NCBI GenBank assembly: GCA_964362175.1 | Contig: CAYIDD010000002.1 | Coordinates: forward strand, 45,939 to 109,938 | Origin: an uncultured Candidatus Saccharibacteria bacterium | GTDB lineage: Bacteria > Patescibacteriota > Minisyncoccia > Phycocordibacterales > UBA2100 | Direction: 5' to 3' | Length of the DNA: 64,000 bases | Shown: piece by piece, positions 1,455-55,206 of the stretch | Position numbering within the stretch: the stretch's first letter is position 1 | Layout of the letters: the number at the start of each line of letters is the position of its first letter | Made by a program: the position numbers and the translations under genes | The notes under the pieces: generated by a model | What the model was told of the DNA's origin: nothing | Seen by the model: only the letters and a program-made list of their open reading frames with translations | The model's database searches: none

Positions 1455-4400
1455 TTACTTTTCCATTTTGTACTCTTCCCACGGCTTCGTCTTTAATCCA
1501 TCGCCCTCGCCCGTGGCCCGGCCACGGGCGAGGCTTTTTTGCTCCGCGAGCGCCATCACGAATGCTTCGGCGAGCTGCCGATTTGTGAGAAGCGGAATAT
1601 TCATGTCGACCGCCTTGCGACGGATGGTGAAGCCATCGGTGCTCTCGCTCGCCCCCGGACAGGTGGGGATATTGATGATGAGATCAAGGGCCCCCGCATT
1701 CAGAATGGTTGCAACGTTCGGCTCTTTTTTTGTGCTTATTTTGTAGACCTTCTCGCACGCGACATCGTTCTCTCGAAGGAAATCTGCCGTGTGCTCCGTG
1801 GCGATGAGGTTAAACCTCATCGTGGAGAGGGTTTTCATCGTGGATAGCAACTTGACCTTGCTCTCTTCACCCCCGACTGAGACCAAAATGTTCTTCTTCG
1901 GCAGTCGGAAACCGGCGGCCATCATTGATTTCAGGAGTGCTTCGGAATATGAGTCCCCGAAACAGGCGACCTCACCCGTCGAAGCCATCTCGACATTTGA
2001 GCGTGGGTCGGCTCCTTTGATGCGACTGTAGGAAAATTGCGGCGACTTCACGGCGACAAGGTCGAGCTCCAGAGTCCGGTAATTGCCGGAAATATCTTTG
2101 CCGAGCATTGCCCAAACAGCTTTTTCAATGAGGTTATAGCCTGTTACCTTGGAAACGAACGGGAAGCTGCGCGAGGCGCGTACATTGCACTCGATCACCT
2201 GAAGATTGTTGTCTTTCGCGATGAATTGGATGTTAAAGGGTCCGGTGATGTTGAGCGCCTTTACTATTAATTTCGTGATATGTTTTGCCCTTCGGGTGGT
2301 CTCGATGTAGGTTCTCTGTGGCGGCAACACGACCGTCGCATCGCCGGAGTGCGTCCCTGCATTTTCAACGTGCTCGGTGATCGCATAGAGTTTTAGGTTC
2401 CCTTTTGCAGCCACTCCGTCAATCTCGATCTCGCGCGCGTTCTCGATGAATTTTGATATGACCACCGGATGGTCGGAGGAGACATCGGCCGCGCGCTTCA
2501 AGAATTGGAGAAGGGAAGCCTCATCATACGCGATCTTCATCGCCGCACCTGAGAGCACGTATGAGGGGCGTACGAGGACCGGATAGCCCATTTTTGCCGC
2601 TATCTTCGCGGCGTCCGCATGCGTCCGCACCTCCGACCACGCAGGCTGATCCACGCCGAGCGTGTCGAGAAGCTTTGAGAACACGTGACGATCTTCAGCT
2701 CTGTCGATATCCCTTGGATCCGTTCCGAGGATCCTCACTTTTCTTTTGTGCAGTTTGAGCGCCAGGTTGTTCGGGATCTGCCCGCCGGTCGAGACGATAA
2801 CGCCTTTCGGGTCTTCAAATTCGATGATGTCGAGTACGCGTTCAAGCGAGAGTTCGTCAAAGTAGAGTCTGTCGGACATGTCGTAGTCCGTAGAAACAGT
2901 TTCCGGATTCGAGTTGATCATTATCGTGCCGAAGCCTTCGTGCTCAAGTGTTTTTAAGGCTTGTACACAGGACCAGTCGAACTCTACTGAGGAGCCGATC
3001 GCGTACGGACCACTCCCGAGTACGACCACTTGATCTTTCCCGCGGGAGATATCATTTTCTGTGCCGTGGTAGGTCATGTAGAGATAGTTGGTCTGTGCGG
3101 GGAATTCACCCGCCAGAGTATCGATCTGTTTGACCACCGGACGTACCTTGAGGCGGATACGCGCAGAGCGTATGTCTGTTTCCGTTTGCCCCTTCGTGTT
3201 CCCTATCTGAGCGTCGGAAAAGCCGGCTTTTTTTGCCCGCCGCATCGTATCCACAGTGAGCTTTGAGCGCTGAAGTTCCTTTTCGACCTCAATAATATTT
3301 TGCATTTTGGCAAGGAACCACGGGTCGATCTTTGAGAGTGCGCGTATCTTTTCGATAGACTCGCCCTCCCGAAACGCCTGCGCAAGCGCAAAGATGCGGC
3401 GTGTGGTCGGCTCCTGTATCTCCTTTAGGCAATCGGACACTTCGAAATCTTTTTTATTTTTCTGCGCCGTAAAACCGAGAGCGCCGATATTGAGCATACG
3501 CAGCGCCTTTTGAAGAGTTTCTTCGAACGAGCGCCCGATCGCCATCACTTCGCCGACACTTTTCATTTCAGTACCGATACAGGATGCCGCATTCTCGAAT
3601 TTTGCGAGATCCCACCGTGGCATTTTGAGCACAAGATAATCAAGCGCGGGCTCGAAACAGGCGGTAGTTTTTCCCGTGACAGAATTTCTGAGGTCAGTGA
3701 GTAGGTGTCCGAGTGCGAGTTTGGCAGCTACGAATGCGAGCGGATAGCCAGTGGCTTTTGAGGCAAGTGCCGATGAGCGTGAGAGACGCGCATTCACTTC
3801 AATGACGCGGTAGTCACTACTCCCCGGATGAAGCGCATACTGAATGTTGCACTCGCCGACGATGCCGAGGTGGCGGATAGTCTTGATCGCGATCTCGCGA
3901 AGGTTGTGATACTCGGCATTCGAGAGCGTCTGCGATGGTGCAACGACGATAGATTCACCCGTATGAATGCCCATAGGGTCAATATTTTCCATGTTGCAGA
4001 CCGTGATGCAGTTGTCCGCACGATCACGGACCACCTCATATTCGATCTCCTTCCATCCGCCAAGATATTCCTCTATCAGCACTTGCGAGGTTGAGCGGAA
4101 AACTTCGGGAAGCTTTGCCGAAAGTTCTGCAGCGTTTTTCACCATGCCCGATCCCTCACCGCCGAGCGCGAATCCGGAGCGCATCATGACGGGGTAGCCG
4201 ATCTCCTGCGCGGCTTGAAGTGCTTCGGCGACAGTGGTGGTGGCATGGCTGCGGGCGGTTTTTACGCCTATCTCATCCAAGCGCTTTACAAACAGATCAC
4301 GATCTTCAGTATCGCGGATCGTGGAAACGGGAGTACCGAGAACGCGCACATTGTATTTTTTTAGCACGCCGCTTTTTTCGAGCGAGAGACCGAGGTTGAG

Positions 4401-9658: not shown

Positions 9659-9733
9659 GGGCCAGTAGTTCAGTGGTAGAATGCCTCATTTGCAATGAGG
9701 AGGTCCGGGGTTCGATCCCCCGCTGGTCCACCA
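9659..9733 (+). tRNA. tRNA-Ala (anticodon UGC), CCA encoded
   Basis: Cloverleaf: acceptor GGGCCAG/CTGGTCC with the G3:U70 alanine identity pair. Anticodon stem CCTCA/TGAGG with loop TTTGCAA gives anticodon TGC. T-arm CGGGG-TTCGATC-CCCCG. Confidence 0.9.
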
Positions 9734-11991
9734 TGCATATCGTTGTTCCTATAAAAAACCTTCACGAACACATCGCTACGTTAGCACGGACCACGCCAAA
9801 AAAGATCGCGCTTGTCGCGACGGACGAACGGGGGACTACCACCGAGAAGATCACGTATGCCGACTTGCTCGAAAAGGTAGAAGCGGCGGCGGCGGAGTTG
9901 AGAGATCTCGGTTTGCAAAAGGGGGATCGTATCGCGCTCGCATTCCGTAATTCGCCCGCACTTCTTATATGGAGCTGGGCCGCATGGGCGATGGGCATAG
10001 TGACGGTGCCCATGGACACAAAGCGGGACACTCCGGAACTCTACGCGTATAAGATCAATCTCAATAAAGCGAAGGTGTTGATCCTTGAGCGGGGGATACA
10101 GGTAGATAAACTACCTGGCGTTCGTGTCAAAGTACATCTGGAATTCCCTTCCGAAGGAGGGTCCGCCTCTGGCGGAAAAGGTGCACCGGTTGCATGGGAG
10201 AAGGGGCTCTCGCATCAATCGCTCGTTCTCTTTACCTCCGGCACGACCGGCCATCCGAAGGGGGCGATGCTCTCCCTCGAGAATCTCATCGTCAATGCGA
10301 GCGGTATCTGTGAATGGTTACGGTTCACCGAGAATGATGTATTTCTCGTAAATCTGCCCCTGCACCACATCAACTCCACCACGTTCTGCCTCTCGACGCT
10401 CCTTGCGGGCGGTACGATCGCCATACCGCCGCAGTATTCGAATTCGCATTTTTGGGAGCAGAGCGGCAAAACGGGCGCTACCGTTACGTCTGTGGTGCAA
10501 TCGATCGTATTTGATCAGCTGAAGCGCGAAAAGGAGTTCGCGGCCGGGAAAAAACATGTAAAACTGAATAAAATACAAATAGGCTCTGCTCCGGTACTCG
10601 CACAGTCGGTGCAGGAATTCCAGAAGAAATTTGGCATCCGTCTCTATCAAGGCTACGGACAAACGGAGACGGCGCTTCGGGTGACCGGCGTTCCAATGGA
10701 CATTTCGGAGGAGCTCCACGAAAGACTTGTGGAGGAAAATTCCATCGGGACACCTATGCAATGGGCCGATCTGCAGGTATCGGACGATGAGGGAAAGCTA
10801 CTCGACGAGGGAGAGGAGGGGGAACTCATCGTCAAAGGTCCCGCGATCATGGAAGGGTACCTCGGACGCGAACCGGCGTTCCGCAACGACTACTTCCTTA
10901 CGGGGGACATCGGCTACTACCGTGTTATCGAGGGCCGGAAATATTTTTATCTCAAAGGCCGCAAACGGGAAATCATCATCAAGGGTGGTATCAACGTCTC
11001 GCCAGTCGCTGTCGAAAATGCTCTCAAGAAAATATCAGGAGATATAGATCAGGTACACGTTGTCCCCGTGCCTGATGAACGATATGGCGAGGAGGCTGGC
11101 GCCGTCATCTCATGGAAAACCGGTATAGATGAAATGCGCGCGAAACGGTACCTCAAGAGCACACTACTCCTCGGTACGCGATACCTCAGTGCATACGAGA
11201 CGCCCAAGTACATAACATCACTTTCAATAAGCGAGCTTCCGATGACCTCCACCGGAAAAGTGCAACGCGGCGTTCTGAAAGGCACCATTCCGTATGAAAA
11301 ATTCGAGTCAATATTCGGTCTCCTCAAGACACCTAAGTACCGCTTTACTGTGTTGCACCGCTATTCACGATGGACGGAGCCCTCATATGAACTACACAAA
11401 CGTTGCTGGGGGGATATTGCCGGCACGAGGGAGGAGTATGAAAAGAATATCCCCAAACAGCTCATTATCCTTGCGGCAAGGCCGGACGACACGATCGTCG
11501 GACAGATCGCCGTCGTTCGTACGAGCCTCCCGGAAAAGGAGCTTCTTCAAAAAAAATATGATGAATTGATCCCAGAAGCATCTGATCGTGAGGGAAATGC
11601 GCTTGTATGCGTTTCCATTTGCAACGCTGAATACACGCCAAGACCCATTCCTTCGGTGAATTTAATCCCGAAACCCGATGAGGTCCGCGCATATCTTTTA
11701 GGCGGGAACGACCCCGTCATGCGATTCCACGAAAAGCCGAAAGGAGGTCTTGCCGAGGGTGCAAAGCTTGTCGACGTCATTGAGAGTGGCCGGCCCAAAG
11801 ACAAAAGCTCGCTCGGATACAACATGCTTCTCAAATATCCGGAACCGAAAAATATTGTCATCCATACGCACGCACCCGTCCCCAACCAGCTCATTGAGAT
11901 GGTGCTTCTTCTTGCGGGCGATCTCGGTATCAAAAATGTGTACGCCTACTCGCGTCCTGGCGGCTTGGCGTCGTATGTATCCACAGGTTGA
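9733..11991 (+). CDS. AMP-forming acyl-CoA synthetase/ligase fused to an extra C-terminal domain of about 220 aa with no recognised family
   Basis: Motifs TSGTTGHPKG, YGQTE, GEL..KG.....GY and C-terminal TGKVQR of adenylate-forming enzymes end near residue 530. A further ~220 residues follow. The ATG at 9733 shares its A with the tRNA CCA; the track start at 9673 is a GTG inside the tRNA. Confidence 0.8.
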   Translation: MHIVVPIKNLHEHIATLARTTPKKIALVATDERGTTTEKITYADLLEKVEAAAAELRDLGLQKGDRIALAFRNSPALLIWSWAAWAMGIVTVPMDTKRDTPELYAYKINLNKAKVLILERGIQVDKLPGVRVKVHLEFPSEGGSASGGKGAPVAWEKGLSHQSLVLFTSGTTGHPKGAMLSLENLIVNASGICEWLRFTENDVFLVNLPLHHINSTTFCLSTLLAGGTIAIPPQYSNSHFWEQSGKTGATVTSVVQSIVFDQLKREKEFAAGKKHVKLNKIQIGSAPVLAQSVQEFQKKFGIRLYQGYGQTETALRVTGVPMDISEELHERLVEENSIGTPMQWADLQVSDDEGKLLDEGEEGELIVKGPAIMEGYLGREPAFRNDYFLTGDIGYYRVIEGRKYFYLKGRKREIIIKGGINVSPVAVENALKKISGDIDQVHVVPVPDERYGEEAGAVISWKTGIDEMRAKRYLKSTLLLGTRYLSAYETPKYITSLSISELPMTSTGKVQRGVLKGTIPYEKFESIFGLLKTPKYRFTVLHRYSRWTEPSYELHKRCWGDIAGTREEYEKNIPKQLIILAARPDDTIVGQIAVVRTSLPEKELLQKKYDELIPEASDREGNALVCVSICNAEYTPRPIPSVNLIPKPDEVRAYLLGGNDPVMRFHEKPKGGLAEGAKLVDVIESGRPKDKSSLGYNMLLKYPEPKNIVIHTHAPVPNQLIEMVLLLAGDLGIKNVYAYSRPGGLASYVSTG
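10156..10181 (+). repeat. Palindromic mini-element copy 1, in-frame in acs (encodes EGGSASGGKG)
   Basis: GGAGGG-TCCGCC-tct-GGCGGA-AAAGG. It matches 24 of 26 nt of the nspC copy. Confidence 0.7.
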
Positions 11992-28202: not shown

Positions 28203-29378
28203 ATGTCAAACGAGCAAACCGTTGGTCAGTTCGCCAAAGCTCATCCGGAAATACGGACACCGTACTATCTCATAGACGAATCACTACTTCTGAAGAATCT
28301 TGAAAAGATCAAATACGTACGCGAAAAAAGTGGTGCGAGGTCGGTTATGGCACTCAAATGTTTCTCGACATGGTCAGTCTTCCCGCTCATGAGCAAATAC
28401 ATGGACGGGACCACGTCGAGTGCGCTTTATGAGGCACGACTCGGGCATGAGAAATTCGGAGGGGAGACACAGGCGTACAGTGTGGCGTGGTCGCAGAAAG
28501 ATATCGATGAAGTAAAAACATTCGCCGACAAGATCATATTCAACTCCATTTCGCAGCTGGACCGTTTCTACGACGAGGTGTCCTCCGGAGGAGGATCCGC
28601 CTCCGGCGGAAAAGGCATGAACATCGGCTTGCGGGCCAATCCCGGTATCAGTTACTCCCACTTCGATCTCGCTGATCCCGCTCGCAAGGCAAGCCGACTC
28701 GGTGTGAGAGACATCGCCGCAGTCGAAAAAGTTGCCGACAAAATACGGGGCCTGATGTTCCACGTAAACTGCGAGAACACGGATTTCGATGCTTTCTCGA
28801 AGATAGTCGACCAGATAGGTGAGAAGTACGGGTCGCTTCTCAAAAAAATGGAATGGGTGAGCCTCGGAGGCGGTATAGCGTTTACAAATGAAGGATACCC
28901 GCTCGACAAATTTTGCGAACGACTGAAAAAATTTGCGAACGACTACGACGTGCAGGTATATCTCGAGCCGGGTGAAGCTTCGGTCCTCGGTTCGGGTTTC
29001 TTGGTGACGCAAGTTCTTGATGTTGTGAAGAACGAGGCCGACATCGCCATTATCAATGCTGCCGTCGAGACTCACATGCTCGACAATCTCGTCTATCATG
29101 AAGATGCAACGCTCGCCAACCCCCAAAAGGGTCCCCACCGCTTCATGGTCGCCGGTAACACGTGTCTCGCGGGCGACGTATGGGGGACCTATGACTTGCC
29201 CGAACCGTTGAAGGTCGGTGATTATGTCGTGTTCGACAATGCGGCGCGCTATACAATGGTCAAGATGAGCTGGTTCAACGGTGTGCAGATGCCGAGTATC
29301 GTCGTGAAGCGGCTCGATGGAAAAGTTGACGTGGTGCGGGAATTTACATACGATGACTTCCGTAAAAGCCTGTCGTAA
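28203..29378 (+). CDS. nspC: Carboxynorspermidine/carboxyspermidine decarboxylase
   Basis: N-terminus TPYYLIDESLLLKNLEKIKYV...ALKCFSTWSVF; PLP-dependent fold III decarboxylase, 391 aa. Confidence 0.8.
   Translation: MSNEQTVGQFAKAHPEIRTPYYLIDESLLLKNLEKIKYVREKSGARSVMALKCFSTWSVFPLMSKYMDGTTSSALYEARLGHEKFGGETQAYSVAWSQKDIDEVKTFADKIIFNSISQLDRFYDEVSSGGGSASGGKGMNIGLRANPGISYSHFDLADPARKASRLGVRDIAAVEKVADKIRGLMFHVNCENTDFDAFSKIVDQIGEKYGSLLKKMEWVSLGGGIAFTNEGYPLDKFCERLKKFANDYDVQVYLEPGEASVLGSGFLVTQVLDVVKNEADIAIINAAVETHMLDNLVYHEDATLANPQKGPHRFMVAGNTCLAGDVWGTYDLPEPLKVGDYVVFDNAARYTMVKMSWFNGVQMPSIVVKRLDGKVDVVREFTYDDFRKSLS
28581..28615 (+). repeat. Palindromic mini-element copy 2, in-frame in nspC (encodes SSGGGSASGGKG)
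   Basis: TCCTCC-gga-GGAGGA-TCCGCC-tcc-GGCGGA-AAAGG, two tandem perfect 6-bp hairpins. Confidence 0.7.
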
Positions 29379-29392
29379 TCCTGACATCAGAA

Positions 29393-30757
29393 ATGAAGCC
29401 AAATGTTCGACTGAGCGTTGAGCGAAGAAGTACTGAGGCCAGCAGGCCGAATGTACTGATCGTGGGTGCCGGAGCCGTGGCCCACGTAGCGGCTCACAAA
29501 GCCGCGCAGAACAATGATGTTCTAGGGGATATTTGCATCGCGACACGCAAACGCGCTAAAGCGGACAAAATAATCGAAAGCATCAAGCGTAAAAAGAGCA
29601 TCAAGGATAAAAAGGGAAGGATATATTCCCGTGAAGTGGATGCGATGAATATTCCGGCGATGGTGAAGCTCATCAAAGACACCAATTCATCAATTGTCAT
29701 CAATCTTGGTACCGCGTACATCAATATGTCGGTCTTGGAGGCGTGCATCCGCGTCAGATCTGTCGGCGGTTGTCCGGTGACCTATATGGATACCGCCATC
29801 CACGAGGACCCGACCAAAGTCGCCGAGGATCCGCCATGGTATGCGAATTACGAGTGGAAAAAGCGCGCCGCATGCAAAAAGGCAGGCATCAACGCCATTC
29901 TCGGCGTCGGATTCGATCCGGGTGTCGTGAACGCCTATGCCGCGCTTGCGGTGAAGCATTACCTCGACAAAATAGACAGCATCGATATTCTGGACGTAAA
30001 CGCTGGCACGCACGGCCGGTACTTCGCGACCAACTTCGATCCCGAGATCAACTTCCGCGAGTTCAAGAAAGTGTGGACGTGGATAAACCGCAAGTGGGTG
30101 GAGCGCCCCGTGCACAGTGAACGATGGGATTACACTTTTCCGGTTGTAGGCTCACGCCCCGTCTACCTCAACGGCCACGACGAGCTACACTCGCTCTCAA
30201 AAAACATCAAAGCAAAAAGTATTCGCTTCTGGATGGGCTTCGGCGACCATTACCTCAATGTTTTCGGAGTTCTCCGCAATCTAGGGCTTCTTTCGGAAAA
30301 GCCAGTCATAACAGCCGAGGGGGTGAAGGTGGTACCGCTCAAGCTCCTCAAAGCGGTGTTGCCGGACCCCGCATCACTCGCGAAGACCTACACGGGATAC
30401 ACCTGCATCGCCGATCTCGTAAAGGGGTGGTATGACGGCAAGTGGCGCGAAGTGCTCATCTGGAACAACTGCGACCATGCGAAGTGCTACAAGGAAGTTG
30501 AGTCACAGGCTATCTCATACACCGCTGGCGTGCCGCCCATCGCGGCTGCAATGCTCGTGGCAAAGGGGATCTGGAACCCAAAAACTATGGTCAACGTCGA
30601 GGAATTGGACCCCGACCCGTTCTTGAAACTTCTGGGAAAGATAGGGTTGCCGACAAAAGTGAAAGACATCACTCCAAAGAACGGCAAACCAAGTAAGGAC
30701 GGCATGCCCGCCTCGGCTGCCAAATCCAACAGCATCAAGACACACTACGTGTGGTAA
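29393..30757 (+). CDS. Carboxynorspermidine synthase/dehydrogenase (saccharopine dehydrogenase family)
   Basis: Rossmann VLIVGAGAVAHVAAHK. Saccharopine-dehydrogenase-like C-terminal region. Adjacent to nspC. Confidence 0.75.
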   Translation: MKPNVRLSVERRSTEASRPNVLIVGAGAVAHVAAHKAAQNNDVLGDICIATRKRAKADKIIESIKRKKSIKDKKGRIYSREVDAMNIPAMVKLIKDTNSSIVINLGTAYINMSVLEACIRVRSVGGCPVTYMDTAIHEDPTKVAEDPPWYANYEWKKRAACKKAGINAILGVGFDPGVVNAYAALAVKHYLDKIDSIDILDVNAGTHGRYFATNFDPEINFREFKKVWTWINRKWVERPVHSERWDYTFPVVGSRPVYLNGHDELHSLSKNIKAKSIRFWMGFGDHYLNVFGVLRNLGLLSEKPVITAEGVKVVPLKLLKAVLPDPASLAKTYTGYTCIADLVKGWYDGKWREVLIWNNCDHAKCYKEVESQAISYTAGVPPIAAAMLVAKGIWNPKTMVNVEELDPDPFLKLLGKIGLPTKVKDITPKNGKPSKDGMPASAAKSNSIKTHYVW

Positions 30758-42612: not shown

Positions 42613-42665
42613 ATATTCTCCATCGGTAAATCGTGCTTAACAAAATAATCTCGAACAAATCGCAT

Positions 42666-44552
42666 ATGGCAAAAATACTCGGCATAGACCTCGGTACGAC
42701 CAACTCCGCGATGGCGGTCGTCAAGGGCGGCGAGCCGGAGATCATAGAGAATGCGGAGGGTGCGCGCACGACGCCTTCGACCGTTGCCATTTCCAAGACC
42801 AACGAGCGTTTGGTCGGTCTTTTGGCGAAGCGCCAGGGCGTCACGAACCCAAAGAACACCGTATACCAGATAAAGCGCTTTATCGGTCATAATTTTGACG
42901 AAGCGGCGGTCGGGAAAGATCGTGCGGCGGTGCCGTTTGAGACACAAAAATCCGCAAATGGCGGGATCGAGGTGAAAATGGGGGACAAATGGCACCGACC
43001 CGAGGAAATTTCGGCGATGATATTACAGAAATTGAAGCAGGATGCGGAAGCCCGGTTGGGGGAGACGATAACGGAGGCTGTCATCACCGTTCCGGCCTAT
43101 TTTAACGACTCCCAGCGTCAGGCGACAAAAGACGCGGGCAAGATCGCGGGCTTGGACGTAAAGCGCATCATCAACGAGCCGACCGCCGCCGCGCTTGCCT
43201 ATGGCTTCAACAAAAAGAAGAACGAGAAAATCGCGGTCTTCGATTTTGGCGGCGGCACCTTCGATGTTTCCATACTCGAGGTGGGGGATGATGTGATCGA
43301 AGTTCGCTCGACCGATGGCGACGCACACTTGGGCGGCAGGGACATCGACCAGAAAATAATGGAATGGCTCGCGGAACAATTCAAGAAAGAATCGGGCATC
43401 GATGTGCGCAAAGATCCATTGGCGCGCCAGCGACTCGACGAGGCCGCTGAAAAAGCGAAGATCGAGCTTTCGAGCGCCGTTGATACCGAAGTCAATATTC
43501 CGTTCATCACGTCGACCGACGCGGGACCTCAGCACCTACTTATCAAAATGAGCCGTGCGAAGTTGGAGGAGCTCTCAAATGAGTTCGTAGAACGGGCGAT
43601 GACAATTACCAAGCGCGCCATCGAAGCATCTCCGTTCAAAGTGGACGACCTCAACGAAGTCATTCTTGTCGGCGGACAAACACGCATGCCAGCCCTGCAG
43701 CAAGCGGTCGAAAAATTCTTCGGCAAGAAGCCCAACATGAGCGTGAATCCGGATGAGGTGGTCGCTATCGGCGCGGCAATTCAGGGTGGTATTCTCCAGG
43801 GTGACGTGAAGGATGTGCTCTTGCTTGATGTCATCCCGCTTTCTCTCGGCATCGAGACTATGGGCGGAGTTGCCACCAAACTCATTGAACGTAACACGAC
43901 TATTCCCACATCTCGCTCACAGACATTCTCGACCGCCTCTGACAATCAACCATCGGTCGAAATACATGTCGTACAAGGCGAACGTCCGATGGCAGGAGAC
44001 AACAAATCGCTCGGCCGCTTCAATCTCGACGGCATCCCGCCGGCGCCGCGCGGTACGCCGCAAATAGAGGTTTCCTTTGATATCGACGCCAACGGCATTC
44101 TCTCCGTGAAAGCAAAGGACAAGTCGACCAACAAGGAGCAATCCATCCGCATCGAAGCGACATCCGGTTTGTCGGACGTCGAGGTGGAAAAGATGCGCAA
44201 GGACGCCGAGGCAAATGCCGACGCAGACCAAAAGAAGAAAGAGCTTGTCGAGGCACACAATGCCGCCGATCAGGTGCTTTATGCGGCAGAAAAAGCGCTG
44301 AAGGAACACGGGGACAAGGTGGGCGAAGACATAAAAAAGAATGTGCAGGAGAAGCTCGATGCCCTCAAAGCCGCGCGCGGAAGTGGCGATGTCGCGGCCA
44401 TCAAGTCTGCCGCCGAGGCACTCTCAACGGCCATGAGCACCATCGGGGAGGCGATGTCGAAAAATCCTCCACCGTCCGCCGAAGGCGGATCCTCCTCTGG
44501 AGGAAAGGACGACCAAAAACCGCCGGAGAGTGGCGACGCCGATAAGAAGTAA
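42666..44552 (+). CDS. dnaK: Chaperone DnaK (Hsp70)
   Basis: [26 protein letters not shown] and substrate-binding domain. The G/S-rich C-terminal tail contains a copy of the palindromic mini-element. Confidence 0.95.
44475..44508 (+). repeat. Palindromic mini-element copy 3, in-frame in the dnaK C-terminal tail (encodes [12 protein letters not shown])
   Basis: TCCGCC-gaa-GGCGGA-TCCTCC-tct-GGAGGA-AAGG. Same two hairpin modules in the opposite order. Confidence 0.6.
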
Positions 44553-47606: not shown

Positions 47607-49406
47607 ATGGTGAATGGAAGATCTCGGATGCTGTACGCTGCACTACTTGTTGCCGTTGCAATATCCGTGGGAGGGATTTTTCTGCGGTCTTTTGTTTTTC
47701 AGAGTTACGCGATCGATGTCAATGAATCGGTCATCAGTCATGGGGAAAGTTCGCGCCAGCTCATCGCAAACGATGCGCTGGCGTGCGAGTGGGCACCTGA
47801 TCCTTTTTTAATATTTTCTGCCAACGTATTTTCACCCCTGATTTACTATTCCCACCTGTTCCCCGCTTTAGCGAGCGTCCTGCTCGGATTCTTTATTTGG
47901 CGACAACGGAAAAAATCGCTTTTGAATGGGTTATTCGTATTTCTCGTCAGTATATTCGCCGCGTGGTCGCTGTATGATCTCGTCCTGTGGGCTACGGCAA
48001 ATCCCGACGTGACCATTTTTGTATGGTCAGTGCAGATATTTCTCGATGTCGGCGTGTATATGAGTGCCGGGTACCTCTGCTATGTATTCTTCTATGAACG
48101 AGATCTGTCGTTCACGATGAAGGTTATTGCCGTCGCGGCGCTCATTCCCGTCATCTTTCTTGCTCCAACTGCACTTAATCTTGCTTCTTTCGATTACACT
48201 ACCTGCGACCGTGAGGCGACCGAAGGAGGATTGTGGCACTACGTCTATCTGTTCGAGATTCTCATCGTGCTTTGGGTGGCTGCGCACGCCGTCCGCGCCT
48301 TCCGCGCCGCAACAACTCCAGAGCGCAAAAAGCAGATACTTTCATTCGCCCCCGCAATCATTCTGTTCCTCGTCGCCTTCTCGTGGGGCAACATCGTAGG
48401 CAGTCTTACCTCGGATTGGTCCATCCCCCAATACGGACTTTTTGGGATGCCTATCTTCCTTGCCGTAACGCTGTACCTCATCGTCAAATATCAAACCTTC
48501 CAAGTACAGACGATCGCCGCCTCAGCACTCGTGAGCGGCCTCTGGACACTTCTATTCTCCATACTTTTCCTAGCGGACATGGAGACTGCGCGCCCGGTCA
48601 TTGTGATAACGCTGGTATTCTTCGCGATGATGGGGTTGCTCTTGGTGCGGAGTGTGCGTCGCGAGATTGCACAACGCCACTTGATCGAGAAGCAGGAGAA
48701 AGAGCTGGAGATCGTGAACAAGCAGCAGGAAAATCTACTCCACTTCATGAGCCACGAGGTCAAGGGGTACCTAACCGAAGGGCAGGCGGGGTTTGCTTCG
48801 ATAGTCGAAGGGGATTATGGCGCAGTGCCGGATTCTCTCAAGACGATGGCGACGAACGCGCTCGTGAAAGTACGAAAGGGTGTGGCGACTATCATGGACA
48901 TCCTGAAAGCATCCGATATGAAAAAGGGTACGGTGGCGTACAAAAAAGACTCCTTTAACTTTAGGAAAGCGGTGGAAACCATCGCGGGTGAACAAAAGGC
49001 GGCTGCATTGGAAAAAGGTCTTGGATTTGAGGTGAACATCGCGGAAGGGAAGTACGTAATGACGGGGGATGCGGAGAAGGTGCGCGACCACGTCATCCGC
49101 AATCTTATGGACAATGCTGTCCGCTACTCTCCGACCGGTACGATCCATGTCGAGCTTTCCGACGGAGGAGGGAAGATACGCTTTTCAGTAAAAGACAACG
49201 GGGTCGGTATCACAGAGGAAGACATGCAACATCTCTTTACTGAGGGCGGTCATGGAAAGGACTCGATAAAGGTCAACGTCCATTCGACTGGCTACGGCCT
49301 CTTTATCGCGAAACAGGTCGTCGACGCCCACGGCGGCAAAATTTGGGCGGAATCAGAGGGGGAAGGCAAGGGTGCCACGTTCATTGCAGAATTTCACGCC
49401 ATATAG
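47607..49406 (+). CDS. Sensor histidine kinase with an N-terminal polytopic membrane sensor domain. No cognate response regulator is present in the window
   Basis: About 8 TM helices. HisKA H-box FMSHEVKG. HATPase_c N, G1 and G2 boxes (DNGVGI, GYGLFIAKQVVDAHGG). Confidence 0.8.
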   Translation: MVNGRSRMLYAALLVAVAISVGGIFLRSFVFQSYAIDVNESVISHGESSRQLIANDALACEWAPDPFLIFSANVFSPLIYYSHLFPALASVLLGFFIWRQRKKSLLNGLFVFLVSIFAAWSLYDLVLWATANPDVTIFVWSVQIFLDVGVYMSAGYLCYVFFYERDLSFTMKVIAVAALIPVIFLAPTALNLASFDYTTCDREATEGGLWHYVYLFEILIVLWVAAHAVRAFRAATTPERKKQILSFAPAIILFLVAFSWGNIVGSLTSDWSIPQYGLFGMPIFLAVTLYLIVKYQTFQVQTIAASALVSGLWTLLFSILFLADMETARPVIVITLVFFAMMGLLLVRSVRREIAQRHLIEKQEKELEIVNKQQENLLHFMSHEVKGYLTEGQAGFASIVEGDYGAVPDSLKTMATNALVKVRKGVATIMDILKASDMKKGTVAYKKDSFNFRKAVETIAGEQKAAALEKGLGFEVNIAEGKYVMTGDAEKVRDHVIRNLMDNAVRYSPTGTIHVELSDGGGKIRFSVKDNGVGITEEDMQHLFTEGGHGKDSIKVNVHSTGYGLFIAKQVVDAHGGKIWAESEGEGKGATFIAEFHAI

Positions 49407-49438
49407 AATAAGTGTTTTTTCTGCTATTATTTGCCAAT

Positions 49439-50380
49439 ATGCAGAAAAAACGCCTCTTCACTGGCCTTCAGCCCTCCGGCCCCCTCCACATTGGCAACTA
49501 TTTGGGGGCGCTCAAACAAACGGTTGAAATACTCAAAGATTCTGATGGGCTCGTGATGATAGCCGACTACCACGCCCTGACGACACTTCGTGCACCGGAA
49601 GAGCTGCGAAAGAATATATTGGGAGTAGCGCGGGATTACATTGCGGTCGGGCTTGATCCAAAAAAGATCGCTATTTTCAAACAATCGGACGTACCGGAAC
49701 ACACGGAGCTTGCGTGGATATTCGATTGCCTCGTAACCGTCCCATTTTTACAGCAAGCGCACGCGTACAAAGACAAAGTTGCAAAAGGTCTTGACGCGAA
49801 TGCGGGACTTTTCACATACCCGATGCTTATGGCAGCCGACATCCTGCTCTACGATACCGATGTGGTGCCTGTCGGTGCCGACCAGCGACAGCACGTGGAA
49901 TACGCGCGTGAAGCTGCTGCAAAGTTCAATACGGCGTTCGGGGAGACATTCAAAGAACCACAGGAGCGGATACTGGAGGCTGTTGCAGTCGTGCCGGGCA
50001 CCGACGGAAAGAAAATGAGCAAGAGTTACGGCAATACAATACCACTTTTCGGAACGCGGGAAGAGATACAAAAGGCGGTGATGGGCATCGTCACGGACTC
50101 AAATGCGGAGAGCCCCGAAAATGTATACAACATCCACAAATTCTTCCGCTCCGGCGACGAGCTCGTAACGCTCTACAAAGAGAACAAGGGAAAATACAAA
50201 GCCCTCAAGGAAGCGCTTATCGAGGACATTGAGGCAGTGGTGGGCCCGATGCGGGAAAGGCGTGCAAATATCTCCGATTCCGATGTGAAGGCAATACTCA
50301 AAGACGGAGGGGAAAGAGCCCGCGCTCAAGCGGCAGTAAAAATGGCCGATGTACGGGCAAAAGTAGGAGTCACGCTTTAA
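49439..50380 (+). CDS. trpS: Tryptophan--tRNA ligase
   Basis: Class I motifs: PSGPLHIGNYLGAL (HIGH-like) and KMSKS. 313 aa from the ATG at 49439. Confidence 0.9.
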   Translation: MQKKRLFTGLQPSGPLHIGNYLGALKQTVEILKDSDGLVMIADYHALTTLRAPEELRKNILGVARDYIAVGLDPKKIAIFKQSDVPEHTELAWIFDCLVTVPFLQQAHAYKDKVAKGLDANAGLFTYPMLMAADILLYDTDVVPVGADQRQHVEYAREAAAKFNTAFGETFKEPQERILEAVAVVPGTDGKKMSKSYGNTIPLFGTREEIQKAVMGIVTDSNAESPENVYNIHKFFRSGDELVTLYKENKGKYKALKEALIEDIEAVVGPMRERRANISDSDVKAILKDGGERARAQAAVKMADVRAKVGVTL

Positions 50381-50384
50381 TACT

Positions 50385-51785
50385 ATGCAACGAACATTTA
50401 TAAAAGATCTGCGCGAACATATCGGTGAAACCGTCCTCATCAAGGGCTGGGTAGCCGTGCGGCGCGACCAAGGCAAGATGGTCTTTTTTGATCTCCGCGA
50501 TATGACGGGGGAGGTGCAGGGTGTCGTGCTTTCGGGGAGCCCCGCCATAGGGACAGCAAAAAACACAAGCAGGGAGAGTGTCGTGAGCGTTACGGCCGAG
50601 GTGAAAAAGCGTCCCGAAAAGAACACGCAGACGGGCAAACTCAACGGCGACATTGAGATCGTGGTGAACGAACTCGTGGTGGAAAGTCCCGCGGCAGTGC
50701 TTCCTTTTGAGGTCAACGAAGATACGTCCGGTATCGGGGAGGAGGTGCGGCTCGCGCACCGATACCTAGACCTGCGTAGCGAACGCATGCAGCGCAACAT
50801 CCGCTTGCGGAGCGAATTCGTCCGCCGGTGCCGTGAGTTCCTCTTTGGACAGCAGTTTACCGAGATCGAGACCCCGCTTCTGACCGAGTCGACCCCCGAA
50901 GGCTCCCGCGATTTCGTCGTACCATCGCGCTTGCACCCCGGCAAATTCTACGCCCTGCCGCAATCACCCCAGCAATACAAACAGCTGCTCATGGTCGGCG
51001 GATTCGAGCGCTATTTTCAGATAGCGCGCGCCGTGCGCGATGAAGACTTGCGGGCTGATAGAGGATTCGAGCATACTCAGATCGATGTCGAGATGTCGTT
51101 CGTGAGCCAAGAGGACGTGATGAACACCGTCGAGACTATGATAACGACTGCCGTCGAGGGAATGGGCTATACCGTCAAAGAAAAACCCTTTCCCCGCTTC
51201 ACGTATGCGGAAGCAATGGAAAAATTCGGTGCCGATAAATTCGACCTCCGAACAGAAGATGAGAAGCAGCGGGGGATACTCGCGTATGCGTGGGTCTACA
51301 AATTCCCGTTCTTCGAAAAGACTACCGAGGGAGGATGGACGTTCACACACAATCCGTTCTCGATGCCGCTCCCCGAACACGTTGAGGATCTTTTGCAGAA
51401 AAAAAATGTTGGGGAGATTTTGACTACCCAGTACGATCTTGTCTGCAATGGATTCGAAGCAGCTGGCGGAAGTATCCGCGCGCACAAACCAGAGCTTCTC
51501 AAGGCGGTATACGAGATCATGGGCTATTCAGAAGAGGAGACGCGTGAACGCATCGGCCATATGCTGGATGCATTCCGATACGGAACGCCGCCCCACGGCG
51601 GCATCGCGATAGGGGTCGAACGCATTATCATGAACCTTACGGGCGAGTCGCATCTGCGCGAGGTGCAGGCATTTCCCATGACGCGCGGGGGGCAGACGGC
51701 AGTTATGAGGGCGCCCAAGCCGCTCACCAAAGAGCAATTGGAAGAGCTCGGTATTCAGATAAAACCCGGAAAGAAACATGACTGA
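50385..51785 (+). CDS. aspS: Aspartate--tRNA ligase, short (archaeal/eukaryote-like, GAD-less) class IIb type; asparagine specificity cannot be excluded
   Basis: N-terminal OB-fold anticodon-binding domain and class II motifs 1-3 (FRNE-like region, GGSIR). 466 aa, without the bacterial insertion domain. Confidence 0.7.
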   Translation: MQRTFIKDLREHIGETVLIKGWVAVRRDQGKMVFFDLRDMTGEVQGVVLSGSPAIGTAKNTSRESVVSVTAEVKKRPEKNTQTGKLNGDIEIVVNELVVESPAAVLPFEVNEDTSGIGEEVRLAHRYLDLRSERMQRNIRLRSEFVRRCREFLFGQQFTEIETPLLTESTPEGSRDFVVPSRLHPGKFYALPQSPQQYKQLLMVGGFERYFQIARAVRDEDLRADRGFEHTQIDVEMSFVSQEDVMNTVETMITTAVEGMGYTVKEKPFPRFTYAEAMEKFGADKFDLRTEDEKQRGILAYAWVYKFPFFEKTTEGGWTFTHNPFSMPLPEHVEDLLQKKNVGEILTTQYDLVCNGFEAAGGSIRAHKPELLKAVYEIMGYSEEETRERIGHMLDAFRYGTPPHGGIAIGVERIIMNLTGESHLREVQAFPMTRGGQTAVMRAPKPLTKEQLEELGIQIKPGKKHD

Positions 51786-52506
51786 GAAATTTGCGGTAAC
51801 GACACCGACTTTCGCCGGCCCGCTCGAAACGCTTCTCAATATGATCGAGGAGCGCAAGATGTCTGTTTCCGATATCTCACTCGCAGAAGTCACGGATGCA
51901 TATCTTGCGCACGTTGAAAAATTGCCGGAGCTCCCTCTCGGAGAAACGGCTCAGTTCATTTTAGTCGCTTCCACGCTTCTCCTCATCAAATCACGCTCGC
52001 TCCTACCCACACTTGAACTCTCCGAAGACGAGCGCGAGAGCGTTGAGGAGCTTGAGCGCAGACTCGCACGTTATGCGCTTTTCCGTAAAGCGGCAAAACT
52101 ATTGCGCCGGGAGTGGGGGAGGGCACTGCTCCTCCTTGCGCGTCGCGCCCCGCTTCGCCCCGCCGTGTTCAGTCCGGCTGATGCCGCACTCGCCTCGATC
52201 GCAGGAGCCGCACGGCGCTTGGTAAGCATCCTGCCGAAGCCTGAGGCGCTTGCAAAGGCCGCCGTGGCTCCCGTACTCGCGCTCGAAGACGTTATCGTCC
52301 ACATGAAAAAGCGTCTCACGAGCGCCTTCAGGGCTCGTTTTAGCGAGCTGACCAAGTCGCGCAGCCGGAACGAGGTCATCGTCTATTTTCTCGCCATGCT
52401 TGAGCTCGTGCGCGGCGGACATGCGAGCGTCTCACAGGAAAAACTTTTTGAAGACATCACGATCGAGATAGAAAATGTGACTGGCGCTCCGCGCTACGGA
52501 ACATAA
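51778..52506 (+). CDS. scpA: Segregation and condensation protein A
   Basis: Conserved ScpA N-terminus (FAGPLETLLNMIEERKMSVSDISLAEVTDAYL). Its ATG overlaps the aspS stop as ATGA. Confidence 0.8.
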   Translation: MTEKFAVTTPTFAGPLETLLNMIEERKMSVSDISLAEVTDAYLAHVEKLPELPLGETAQFILVASTLLLIKSRSLLPTLELSEDERESVEELERRLARYALFRKAAKLLRREWGRALLLLARRAPLRPAVFSPADAALASIAGAARRLVSILPKPEALAKAAVAPVLALEDVIVHMKKRLTSAFRARFSELTKSRSRNEVIVYFLAMLELVRGGHASVSQEKLFEDITIEIENVTGAPRYGT

Positions 52507-52507
52507 T

Positions 52508-53125
52508 ATGGCGAACAATATCGCATCCCGTATCCATGCATTCCTCTTTAGCGAGGGGGGTTCGCTCGCAAAACGTAAGCTCGCACAGCTCGTGGAAATC
52601 AAAGAATCGGAGCTCCCAGGTGCGCTTCAAGAGCTTTCCGCACGGCTCGAAGGAAGCGGGCTCGCTCTCATACAGACAAATACCGAAGTTACTCTCGCGG
52701 TAGCTCGCGAGACTTCTGTCGCGGTACGGGCGGCATTCGAACGTGAGCTGGGGAGCGCCATTGGAGACGCCGGCCTCGAAGTTCTGGCGATCGTTCTCTA
52801 TCGTGGACCATCCACACGCGCTCAGATCGATTACATTCGCGGTGTGAATACAAGCTCTACGATCCGCACACTGCTGGGAAGGGGGCTTCTTGAGCGCACG
52901 GGAAATCCCGATGACGGCCGCGAGTACCTGTACCGTCCGACCGTTGAGCTCCTTGCGCACATCGGCGCGCGTACCGAAAACGAACTACCCGATTACGAGA
53001 ATATTAGGACGGAATTGACGGCTTTTGAGGCCCTCGATCGCGGCCCCGGCGAGACAACGCACACGACCGATGGATCTCCCGATATGCCACCAAAAGAACA
53101 CCATGGAAGAAACGATGCCGACTGA
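52508..53125 (+). CDS. scpB: Segregation and condensation protein B
   Basis: Two winged-helix repeats (LEVLAIVLYRGPSTRAQIDYIRGVNTSSTIRTLLGRGLLE). Confidence 0.8.
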   Translation: MANNIASRIHAFLFSEGGSLAKRKLAQLVEIKESELPGALQELSARLEGSGLALIQTNTEVTLAVARETSVAVRAAFERELGSAIGDAGLEVLAIVLYRGPSTRAQIDYIRGVNTSSTIRTLLGRGLLERTGNPDDGREYLYRPTVELLAHIGARTENELPDYENIRTELTAFEALDRGPGETTHTTDGSPDMPPKEHHGRNDAD

Positions 53126-54083
53126 ACAGGTGTCTGCGGAAGGACGGAGACAATCTCCTCCTCCATGGCCGACGGCCGTTGTGTTCGCGCTGCTTTTCGT
53201 TTCGGCGGCCGCACTCTCAGCCATATATTTTTTTGAAGATGCGCGTCTTCAAAATCCCTCCCAAACGGCAGCTGCGGCCGCCGCCAATCCGTTCGCAGAC
53301 ATCGCCCTGGAAGCAGACAGCGTGGTCGTAGTGGATCTCGCGACCGATCATATTCTCTATTCCCGAAACCCCGATGTGCAACTGCCCCTCGCCTCGTTGA
53401 CCAAAGTACCGATGGCGTTCGTCGCCTCAGAGGTGCTGCTGCCGGACGCGATCCTCACCATTCCCGAACACGAAACGCCGGACGGGGCGTCGATCCGCTT
53501 ACCTGCCGGATTAAAATTCCTCGCTCGGGACCTCATGGATTTTACGCTGGTTGCCTCCTCGAACGAGGGGGCGGAGATCGTGGCTTCAGCCGCGCGGGGG
53601 GGGATCAAAAGAAAATATCCCGAGGCCGATCAGAACCGTACCGTGCTGTGGCGCATGAACAACCTTGCGCGTAATCTCGGACTCACACGTACATATTTTT
53701 TGAATCTGAGCGGACTCGATCTCAGCACAACGCAAGCTGGCGCGTATGGATCCGCCAACGACACCGCCCGTCTTTTTGCATATATTGCGTCAACCTCTCC
53801 GCACATATTCGAGCAAACATCACGCAACGAGGTTCAGATCCGCGCGCTTTCGGGCGAAACGATACGAGCGGTGAATACCGACGAGGCGCTGCCGTCCATC
53901 CCCGGCCTCATCATGGGGAAAACCGGATATACAGACCTCGCGGGCGGCAACCTTGCCATCGTGTTTGAGGTCGGTCCGGCACGTCCGGTCGCGATCGTTG
54001 TTCTTCATTCTTCGCTTCAGGGCCGTTTCGACGATGTGCGTAAGCTCGTGGCGGCAACACAAGCCGCGATTGCCGCACAATAA
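53103..54083 (+). CDS. D-alanyl-D-alanine carboxypeptidase (S11 peptidase, PBP5/6-like)
   Basis: SLTK (SxxK) active-site motif and an N-terminal membrane anchor. The ATG at 53103 overlaps the scpB 3' end by 23 nt in another frame. Confidence 0.75.
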   Translation: MEETMPTEQVSAEGRRQSPPPWPTAVVFALLFVSAAALSAIYFFEDARLQNPSQTAAAAAANPFADIALEADSVVVVDLATDHILYSRNPDVQLPLASLTKVPMAFVASEVLLPDAILTIPEHETPDGASIRLPAGLKFLARDLMDFTLVASSNEGAEIVASAARGGIKRKYPEADQNRTVLWRMNNLARNLGLTRTYFLNLSGLDLSTTQAGAYGSANDTARLFAYIASTSPHIFEQTSRNEVQIRALSGETIRAVNTDEALPSIPGLIMGKTGYTDLAGGNLAIVFEVGPARPVAIVVLHSSLQGRFDDVRKLVAATQAAIAAQ

Positions 54084-54116
54084 ACTGATAACTATACCCG
54101 TAGTACAATACCCACC

Positions 54117-55181
54117 ATGCTCCCACCTCTCGTCCTTGTCCTAGTGCCCGCAGCAATTGCCTTTTTGGTCGGTATTATTGCGACCCCGATCCTCACCCAC
54201 TACCTGTACGCGTACAAAGCATGGAAAAAACGCCCCGGCAAACAAGCCTTCGACGGCAATGTGGCACACGAATTTAATCGTCTCCACGCTGAAAACGAAG
54301 TGCGCGCACCGCGCATGGGTGGCATCGTGGTGTGGGGTTCGGTCGTGATCACCACCCTTGGGATCTCCGGCATCGCGTATCTTTTTCCATCTCCCTCCAT
54401 CTTCCAACTTGATTTTCTGAGCAGAAGCCAGACGTGGTTGCCGCTCGCGACACTGATCGTCGGAGCATGTGTGGGACTCCTTGACGACATGATGGTCATA
54501 CGCCCGAACGGCGAGGGGTTGCGCTTGAGACATCGCCTCCTGATCGTAATAACCCTCTCCTCCTTCATCGGATGGTGGTTCTGGGAGAAGCTCGACGTGA
54601 CCGCCGTCAACATCCCTTTCTCCTCTCCGTTCGAATTGGGATGGTTCATTATTCCGTTTTTCGTCTTCGTCTCGCTTGCACTCTACGCGTCTGGAGTCAT
54701 CGACGGCATCGACGGTCTTTCGGGCGGCGTGTTCGCTTCGATCTTTGCCTCATACACCATCATTGCGTTCGCTCAGGGACAGACGGACCTTGCGGCGTTC
54801 ACCGCGTGTATTCTCGGCGGCCTCCTCGCGTTCCTGTGGTTCAACGTGCCGCCTGCGCGGTTCTACATGAGCGACACCGGCACAATGGGGCTCACGCTTG
54901 CGCTTGGCACTATCGCGTTCATGACCGATGACCTCGGCGGGGGATTCGGTATCGCCGTGCTGCCCGTCATCGGAGCGCTTCTCGTCGCAACCGTGCTTTC
55001 GGATGTTGCGCAGCTGTTCTCAAAAAAGTTCTTCGGAAAAAAACTGCTCCGTATAGCGCCACTCCACCATCACTTCGAGGCGATCGGATGGCCCGGACAT
55101 AAGGTCGTGATGCGCTATTGGATACTCTCCATCGTATTTGCCTTCGCGGGAGTCATTGTCGCGCTTTCCGCGCTCTCTTGA
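54117..55181 (+). CDS. mraY: Phospho-N-acetylmuramoyl-pentapeptide transferase
   Basis: DDMMVIR and IDGIDGLSGG motifs, 10 TM. Confidence 0.9.
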   Translation: MLPPLVLVLVPAAIAFLVGIIATPILTHYLYAYKAWKKRPGKQAFDGNVAHEFNRLHAENEVRAPRMGGIVVWGSVVITTLGISGIAYLFPSPSIFQLDFLSRSQTWLPLATLIVGACVGLLDDMMVIRPNGEGLRLRHRLLIVITLSSFIGWWFWEKLDVTAVNIPFSSPFELGWFIIPFFVFVSLALYASGVIDGIDGLSGGVFASIFASYTIIAFAQGQTDLAAFTACILGGLLAFLWFNVPPARFYMSDTGTMGLTLALGTIAFMTDDLGGGFGIAVLPVIGALLVATVLSDVAQLFSKKFFGKKLLRIAPLHHHFEAIGWPGHKVVMRYWILSIVFAFAGVIVALSALS

Positions 55182-55206
55182 ATTCGTGAGTGGTACTATT
55201 CAGTTC

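Follow-up and report, generated by a model that had tools for sequence, protein, structure and literature searches.

A 30-bp double-hairpin repeat of the Candidate Phyla Radiation inserted in frame in nspC of a groundwater Patescibacteria genome

The nspC locus and its insertion

The 64-kb stretch of DNA analyzed here (hereafter the window) comes from a Patescibacteria metagenome-assembled genome (MAG) of Hainich groundwater (0.1 um fraction). It contains a gene for carboxynorspermidine decarboxylase, nspC, that carries an in-frame insertion of two adjacent 15-nt hairpins, together forming a 30-bp element. The features of the locus are the following:

28203..29378, plus strand: nspC (carboxynorspermidine decarboxylase), 391 amino acids, identified by Pfam and solved-structure matches
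28581..28610, plus strand: 30-bp double-hairpin element, defined by its exact insertion relative to orthologues, its fold as single-stranded DNA (ssDNA), and the AlphaFold2 loop
28581-28595, plus strand: module A, TCCTCCggaGGAGGA, a 15-nt hairpin (TCCTCC-gga-GGAGGA)
28596-28610, plus strand: module B, TCCGCCtccGGCGGA, a 15-nt hairpin (TCCGCC-tcc-GGCGGA)

The nspC product matched the Pfam family Orn_DAP_Arg_deC and the NspC structures 3mt1 (E = 9e-134), 9eaf, and 3n29. Positions 28581-28615 of the window read TCCTCCGGAGGAGGA TCCGCCTCCGGCGGA AAAGG and encode SSGGGSASGG-KG in the frame of the open reading frame (ORF) 28203..29378, in agreement with an earlier annotation made from the letters alone (the sequence-only reading). 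The decapeptide SSGGGSASGG was missing from 18 of the 18 closest NspC orthologues (70-86% identical, most with 381 amino acids versus 391), and the solved NspC homologues in the PDB were gapped by 8-10 residues at the insertion point. The proposed double-module insertion is thus borne out, and an equivalent Gly/Ser loop is not universal among NspC orthologues. AAAGG, which had been counted as part of the element, encodes a Lys-Gly pair that is ancestral and present in the orthologues, and therefore lies outside the inserted unit. At the DNA level, two empty sites read GTG-CAGGGA and GTG-AAGGGT, with the hyphen at the junction, as opposed to GTG-[30 nt]-AAAGGC in the window. This comparison gives a clean 30-nt insertion, with no target duplication and with boundaries that cannot be shifted, so the inserted unit is 28581-28610 and comprises the two 15-nt hairpins only.

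The insert had been thought to lie between the N-terminal region and the pyridoxal phosphate (PLP) barrel, but it is actually inside the barrel domain, at residues 127-136 between helix 116-127 and strand 140-145 (AlphaFold2 model, mean predicted local distance difference test, pLDDT, 81). The pLDDT of residues 127-136 is below 50. In TIM barrels, alpha-to-beta loops are found on the face opposite the active site, and the insert, modelled as a disordered surface loop of this alpha-to-beta type, would be on the barrel face away from the active site. It is presumably translated as such a loop.

The identical nspC sequence was found in independent assemblies (ENA and Logan). According to the best-supported reading, the insertion is recent and dates after the split from relatives that are 84-86% identical. 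Other insertions were also observed among NspC homologues. One homologue (P0102) has, in another loop, an unrelated tandem insertion rich in proline (VPPKGVPPKGVLPTGVPP; alignment A1, columns 329-343), and another (P0112) has a 5-residue insert near the same site; NspC loops of this group therefore tolerate other insertions too.

A family of 30-bp elements in CPR genomes

We scanned 185,579 species-representative genomes (596 Gb) with the exact pattern TCCNNNGGAGGRTCCGCCNNNGGCGGA, for which about 0.5 chance matches are expected. At least 118 loci were found, nearly all with lineage labels of the Candidate Phyla Radiation (CPR), which among the matches listed were Kaiser-, Lipton-, Uhr-, Doudna-, Levy-, Shapiro-, Harrison-, and Nomurabacteria, Paceibacteria, "Saccharibacteria", and Patescibacteria. 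Single MAGs carried at least about 10 copies. A metagenome scan in which the variable stem pair was left free (TCCKCC...GGMGGA twice) gave at least 120 loci and at least 125 copies, on contigs with a median GC content of 43% (range 28-65%). The mini-element family suspected from the window alone thus recurs hundreds of times in other CPR genomes. Its commonest form, "BB" (TCCGCC-rra-GGCGGA-TCCGCC-tyy-GGCGGA), made up 109 of the 125 metagenome copies listed, the A-B form of the window being a minority variant. Density was about 1 copy per 20-70 kb, with three copies in the window. Rfam contained no match to the element, either for the whole window at the gathering threshold or for the locus at a permissive E-value, and returned only the tRNA-Ala at 9659-9733. 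Searches of the open-access literature with the DNA and peptide strings, and with CPR combined with palindromic, hairpin, or MITE (miniature inverted-repeat transposable element) terms, retrieved no description of the 30-bp element. The repeat family is apparently undescribed.

Among 2.9 million viral contigs, the two scans produced 0 and 2 matches, and phages were discarded as vectors on these counts. The two contigs of the viral collection that carry the element (L255:4886-4915 and L256:390-419; BB type, 53-55% GC) may represent phages of CPR bacteria, or CPR DNA called as prophage-like.

In the consensus, two 15-nt hairpins lie side by side; their stems are TCCKCC/GGMGGA and, on either strand, the 5' loop is RRA and the 3' loop TYN. 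The halves are inverted repeats of each other at 13-15 of 15 positions. Among the matches listed the element was always a doublet, solo modules being rare and triplets not seen. The nspC copy does have two modules, as claimed, but this is the standard unit of the family and not a special doubled form. Positions 1-3 (YCC), which lay outside the search pattern, proved to be conserved, and this confirms the 30-nt unit. The stems covary, both at positions 1/15 (T-A 109, C-G 20, mismatched 2 among the genome matches listed) and at positions 4/12 of the free-pair metagenome sample, where T occurred with A in 9 of 14 cases versus 0.7 expected. Compensated variant stems (TCTGCC/GGCAGA, TCCACC/GGTGGA, TCGGCC/GGCCGA, and TGCGCC/GGCGCA) were found at low frequency. 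Since covariation is absent between the two loops (27 complementary pairs found versus 34 expected), the constrained structure is a pair of hairpins and not a single long one. The latter was rejected also because AB-type copies would have two mismatches in it. The minimum-energy fold of the ssDNA is the double hairpin (-10.7 kcal/mol; z = -2 to -3.9). Read directly off the sequence, the consensus is free of stop codons in all six frames.

Most copies reside within genes. About 75-80% of those listed in both samples were in ORFs of 120 or more codons; such a spanning ORF contained 107 of 133 copies of the genome sample, 46 in sense and 61 in antisense orientation relative to the genes. Frame 0 was used by 82-84% of the ORF-embedded copies, namely 88 of 107 (36 sense, 52 antisense) in the genome sample and 81 of 97 in the metagenome sample, when one third would be expected by chance. 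In either orientation this frame encodes a peptide of the type S-S/A-x-G-G-S-A/S-x-G-G, because each module is its own reverse complement and the peptide frame is the same on both strands. Other frames were rare but present, and read PPEEDPPPAE or LRRRIRLRR. Host genes included those for class II ribonucleotide reductase, a class I aminoacyl-tRNA synthetase, PolA, GyrA (twice), RecG (three times), a GlmS-like protein, AlaRS, and DnaK and, judging by sequence appearance, a putative DnaJ (G/F region) and a putative ribosomal protein L17 (C-terminus).

The flanks displayed a preference for T at -2 (83-90% of the listed copies) and for A-rich sequence at +1 to +3. This preference, TTK-E-AAA (with E for the element), was kept in both orientations and in intergenic copies, and is roughly symmetric. 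As the flanking bases are ancestral in nspC, they reflect the target and not the element. Over the listed copies there was no general excess of flanking direct repeats, that is, no general target-site duplication. Seven copies had 7-nt near-repeats at their flanks and these, where inspected, were inside AT-rich tandem repeats of about 7 nt.

Intergenic copies were often situated within short AT-rich heptamer tandem repeats of the AAAATTG type (L009:6860-6960, L086:60-170, L100:2730-2830, L075, L052, L055, and L071). Three of them (L009, L086, and L100) have about 30 nt of AT-rich flank in common (tgattg-E-aaaattgSaaattgataattgaaaatt), so a larger composite repeat is possible in some genomes. 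As a general description of the intergenic copies in AT-rich genomes, a composite repeat was rejected, given that outside these three loci few flank bases are in common. In two further loci (L082:5500-5600 and L098:6930-7030) a longer inverted repeat, CCCCCTCTTT-E-AAxxAAAGAGGGGG, apparently a pre-existing hairpin, has the element in its loop.

Orthologous sites are polymorphic among related species. An extra copy is present in one putative DnaJ gene, and a different gene carries two copies in both L043 and L061, of which the first is absent from L095 and the second from L006. The common copy of the putative DnaJ gene was identical at 30 of 30 positions in all 6 pairwise comparisons, with flanks only 62-79% identical. 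Other orthologous copies were identical at 28-29 of 30 positions, and they differed in the loops or by a compensatory change of a C-G to a T-A pair.

The 26-mer GGAGGATCCGCCTCCGGCGGAAAAGG of nspC recurs with 2 mismatches at 10156-10181, where the sequence-only reading had placed a related copy, and 0 of 100 dinucleotide-preserving shuffles gave a match. The remaining copies of the window and the genes associated with them are the following:

10147..10176, plus strand: second copy, encoding PSEGGSASGG, with a slightly degenerate module A (CCTTCCgaaGGAGGG, one G.T pair) followed by module B (TCCGCCtctGGCGGA)
9733..11991, plus strand: host gene of the second copy, class I adenylate-forming/acyl-CoA ligase-like with a C-terminal extension, probable start ATG at 9733
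44475..44504, minus strand: third copy, inverted, in the C-terminal tail of DnaK; the plus strand has B then A (TCCGCCgaaGGCGGA TCCTCCtctGGAGGA)
42633..44552, plus strand: dnaK, host gene of the third copy
29393-30757: saccharopine-dehydrogenase-like gene, directly after nspC

All three copies of the window are in frame and follow the pattern (S/P)(S/A)xGGS(A/S)xGG. The second occupies a loop of variable length, which has about 5-10 residues fewer in the closest orthologues (79-84% identical, alignment A3). The mechanical ORF of its host gene (9673..11991) overlaps at its start with tRNA-Ala(tgc) at 9659-9733, and the real start is therefore probably the ATG at 9733. Past the AMP-binding domains, this adenylate-forming enzyme has a C-terminal extension of about 200 amino acids common to CPR homologues. 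The dnaK copy (25 of 27 positions matched on the minus strand in a mismatch-tolerant scan) was found at the orthologous position in several other Kaiserbacteria-like genomes. As the nspC copy is absent from orthologues, the window holds both an old and a young copy. Separately, the cumulative GC skew climbs steadily to about 52 kb and then drops (window 48000-56000), a turn that may mark a replication origin or terminus, or else a gene-strand switch.

tRNA-linked copies and a GIY-YIG nuclease

Several copies were located in the anticodon loop of partial tRNA copies just upstream of intact tRNA genes. These partial copies were rejected as real intron-containing tRNAs, being without T-arms and called by neither ARAGORN nor Rfam. 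We queried all element-bearing loci with a small ORF from one of them (L213), and obtained 12 GIY-YIG ORFs (about 80-100 amino acids, PF01541), 6 of which were at most 250 nt from a copy. A cassette layout emerged from these loci. It begins with the 5' part of a tRNA-Glu, has the element between nucleotides 35 and 36 (...CCCTTT-E-CACGGCG...), and continues after 10-25 nt with the GIY-YIG ORF, which stops (often after PIV) inside the D-arm of an intact tRNA-Glu. When GIY-YIG homologues were picked by protein similarity alone, 5 of 5 had this layout, with a perfect element in 3 and a degenerate one in 2. The cassettes are the following:

L206, L087, L097, L017, L040, L247 (700-1520), L250 (700-1520), L252, L253, and L254: tRNA-Glu/element/GIY-YIG cassettes

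In L253 and L254, GATATCGCCCTTT followed by the element recurs some 25 nt beyond the intact tRNA, so cassettes may occur there in tandem. Both the cassette and dispersed copies are present in at least two MAGs (VGJQ01 and JAKANR01), and the target of the dispersed copies (TTK followed by AAA, CAA, or CAC) resembles the anticodon loop of tRNA-Glu (CTTT-CAC).

Related arrangements were observed at other tRNA genes. The locus that supplied the query, L213, has tRNA-Gln-like fragments with hairpin modules in the anticodon loop (600-1290 and 2380-2540), a T-loop doublet (GGTTC-TGCGCCccaGGCGCA TCCGCCtttGGCGGA-GAATCC) that includes a compensated variant stem, and a GIY-YIG ORF (726-971) adjoining an intact tRNA-Gln (976-1047). 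Nuclease-less versions (L060:2833-2990, L094:6800-6963, L027:6835-7000, and L028:133-300) consist of the 5' part of a tRNA carrying the element in the anticodon loop, with an intact tRNA-Ser(tga) or tRNA-Gln(ttg) only some 25-35 nt further downstream. In other GIY-YIG subfamilies the leader palindromes differ, examples being CCTGCCTGCCGGCAGGCAGG at L160:6238-6300 and, on the minus strand of L040 upstream of ORF 2994-3356, CCAGCCcaaGGCTGG directly after flanking GGCTG. Hairpin insertions may be a general feature of the pseudo-tRNA leaders of GIY-YIG genes, and some may be templated from the flank.

On the basis of co-location, the tRNA-Glu-linked GIY-YIG nuclease is a candidate for the enzyme that mobilizes the element, or the cassette a candidate for its source. 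Free-standing GIY-YIG homing endonucleases are represented by the Seg proteins of phage T4, of which SegB lies in the T4 tRNA gene region. Like homing cassettes of this type, the tRNA-Glu-linked loci of CPR genomes combine a small nuclease gene, adjacent tRNA genes, and a disrupted target copy; in contrast, the CPR proteins are a bare catalytic domain of about 80-100 amino acids. Homing endonucleases rely on homology-directed repair to propagate their own gene, and we know of none that scatters a 30-bp palindrome into unrelated genes. A different kind of mobility, not described so far, is conceivable, in which the GIY-YIG protein would cut anticodon-loop-like sites (YTTT-CAC) and the break would be repaired by copying the master hairpin of the cassette, one option being microhomology-primed synthesis that halts at the hairpin boundaries. 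We regard this scenario as rather unlikely. If true, it would make the element the smallest known mobile DNA unit, with a new nuclease-dependent copy-in mechanism that has written identical Gly/Ser-coding loops into essential genes across the CPR.

Mode of dispersal, alternatives, and relation to known repeats

Taken together, the nspC segment is very likely to be one copy of a nearly palindromic, 30-bp double-hairpin element dispersed by insertion through the CPR/Patescibacteria. Dispersal would occur by transposition or templated copy-in, presumably with active mobilization in trans. The element would enter without target duplication and in either orientation, preferring T-rich/A-rich junctions (..TTK-E-AAA..). 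As it is 30 nt long, a multiple of three, and stop-free in all six frames, its insertion never truncates a gene. Selection would then mainly retain copies in frame for the flexible Ser/Ala/Gly decapeptide, and copies would survive in loops, linkers, and tails. The observed frame bias probably reflects this selection.

Several points weigh against this interpretation. First, the restriction to CPR rests on MAG labels, and about 6 of the 118 listed loci had non-CPR labels; two of these resemble chance GC-rich matches, and the rest may be mis-binned. Moreover, the copy numbers of the family are lower bounds. Second, old copies are perfectly conserved, which is not predicted for a decaying selfish element and points to some nucleic-acid-level function or self-correcting mechanism; selection on the hairpins, self-correction of the palindrome, or re-homogenization may be responsible. 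Third, in the fold check suggested with the sequence-only reading, RNA prediction for the nspC copy preferred one long hairpin, and in its natural context the fold was unexceptional relative to shuffles. Fourth, the mobilizing enzyme, be it a transposase or another protein, is a candidate only. The E. coli RAYT (REP-associated tyrosine transposase, where REP is repetitive extragenic palindromic) protein, used as a phmmer query, had no match in about 950 kb of element-bearing loci plus the window, and no GIY-YIG ORF was found anywhere in the 64 kb of the window, hence none beside the nspC, adenylate-forming enzyme, or dnaK copies. Finally, 30 bp is below any transposon substrate, autonomous or non-autonomous, that has to our knowledge been characterized.

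The alternative that survives best, which we consider possible but doubtful and which is partly compatible with dispersal by insertion, is that the element is a functional nucleic-acid signal kept by selection, insertion merely creating its sites. Such a signal, recognized or processed as a double hairpin of DNA or RNA by a factor particular to CPR, could be a hairpin that sequesters the Shine-Dalgarno sequence or pauses ribosomes (GGAGGA with UCCUCC), or the target of a structure-specific nuclease or binding protein. It would be in line with the stem covariation and with orthologous copies that are 28-30 of 30 identical next to flanks of 62-79%, the changes being in loops or compensatory. The near invariance of the sequence across CPR classes and host GC contents of 28-65% also fits, as does its position in the cassettes, 10-25 nt upstream of the GIY-YIG ATG, with the GGAGGA end 10-14 nt upstream in several loci. 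However, copies in both orientations, in all three frames, and in intergenic regions as well as unrelated genes have no positional logic in common. Their low density (about 1 per 20-70 kb), the unexceptional RNA fold of the nspC copy, and the lack of an Rfam match also argue against a signal.

We find it improbable that the element is instead the footprint or solo end of a larger mobile element (the GIY-YIG/tRNA cassette, or an insertion sequence (IS) with 15-bp hairpin ends) that was later excised or deleted. Its halves are mutually inverted like abutting terminal repeats, it is integral to the larger nuclease cassette, and the nuclease-less versions, with a partial tRNA and the element upstream of an intact tRNA, do exist. 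Nevertheless, none of the element-bearing loci searched had modules split by a gene-sized insert, the cassettes carry the whole element on one side and not half of it on each, and identical scars of precisely 30 nt at more than 200 sites would need unusually exact excision.

Far less probable still is a recognition sequence for DNA uptake, like the DNA uptake sequences and uptake signal sequences (DUS/USS), or for chromosome organization (parS-like), accumulated by biased uptake or by selection of binding sites. Dependence on DNA uptake is predicted for CPR bacteria, and a palindrome that is conserved lineage-wide, occurs in both orientations, and is tolerated in coding frames would suit this role. 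Yet new copies are clean 30-bp insertions and not substitutions, as would be the case for DUS/USS, and the density is 20-70 times below that of known uptake sequences (3 per 64 kb and at least about 10 per MAG, versus about 1 per kb). As for a binding site, the covariation follows the hairpins within modules and not the two-fold symmetry of a dimeric site, and AB-type copies are asymmetric at positions 4/27 and 12/19. Lastly, an ordinary Gly/Ser linker under protein-level selection, its DNA being alike by chance or convergence, or an assembly artefact, is effectively refuted, even though the dnaK tail and the adenylate-forming enzyme loop are naturally variable and low in complexity: the copies agree in DNA at synonymous positions too and on the opposite strand, they also occur between genes and in the PPEEDPPPAE and LRRRIRLRR frames, the shuffles gave no match, the same nspC sequence is present in the ENA and Logan assemblies, and the family is found in MAGs from many studies.

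For an element dispersed by insertion, several known repeats offer parallels. The double-hairpin elements (DHEs) of fungal mitochondria (Allomyces, chytrids, and Schizosaccharomyces) are short, GC-rich, and dispersed, are presumed to be mobile without a known enzyme, and have copies that hardly differ, if at all, between species, so that selection has to be weighed against transfer (PMC10085805). The CPR element resembles these DHEs and the yeast mitochondrial GC clusters in its two adjacent GC-rich hairpins, its dispersal, and its near-identity across species. On the other hand, DHEs are mitochondrial, mostly in intergenic regions or rRNA genes, and few per genome, whereas the CPR element occurs in bacteria, has exactly 30 bp, forms a near-palindrome overall, and is mostly coding, with one preferred frame; the two are presumably unrelated in sequence. 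Rickettsia palindromic elements (RPEs) and other in-frame MITEs, such as the QMITEs of Coxiella, are palindromic repeats found in frame in genes of bacteria with reduced genomes and translated as extra surface segments; RPEs are about 100-150 bp and genus-restricted. In-frame insertion into protein-coding genes is likewise seen for the CPR element, its translation being presumed. Compared with RPEs, the CPR element has 30 bp, is superphylum-wide, lacks target duplication, and encodes the same peptide type in both orientations.

The CPR element also shares features with the REP/REPIN-RAYT systems, being a short (20-40 nt class), GC-rich, imperfect palindrome in multiple copies, in this case 30 nt with two 6-bp stems. 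As in REP/RAYT and IS200/IS605 systems there is no target duplication, and hairpins are plausibly recognized in ssDNA. REPs are described as extragenic and marked by a GTAG or CGTC tag (PMC3733652). The CPR element, in contrast, is about 75-80% within ORFs, starts with YCC, ends with GGA, is flanked by TTK and AAA, and has neither tag. An IS200/IS605-type derivative would similarly lack duplications and have hairpins near both ends, and would need no terminal inverted repeats. Such elements insert 3' of a specific tetra- or pentanucleotide on one side, with a strand bias; the flanks of the CPR element are roughly symmetric, with 46 sense versus 61 antisense copies relative to genes. The two 15-nt halves correspond to the terminal inverted repeats of MITEs; however, MITEs have a target-site duplication of fixed length, which is absent here, and span about 50-500 bp with internal sequence, whereas the CPR element has exactly 30 bp and nothing between its halves. 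Fungal DHEs, RPEs, and the REP/RAYT and IS200/IS605-type systems are the closest in behavior, and the CPR element lacks defining features of DHEs, RPEs, and REP/RAYT systems. We class it with in-frame palindromic selfish DNA, with an appreciable probability of a new mechanism.

Should the family prove to be as it appears, a genome-wide repeat of 30 bp, distributed across a superphylum, enters essential genes without breaking them. This would lower the known size limit for dispersed insertional elements and provide a concrete enzyme candidate to test, namely the tRNA-Glu-linked GIY-YIG nuclease. The repeat would also be a simple CPR marker in metagenomes, and its presence or absence would furnish a set of characters for tracking strains and for CPR phylogeny. 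In annotation, odd Gly/Ser insertions of 10 residues in CPR proteins are accounted for by it and are not to be taken as functional motifs. For the biology of these organisms, the family would steadily supply flexible loops to proteins encoded by minimal genomes.

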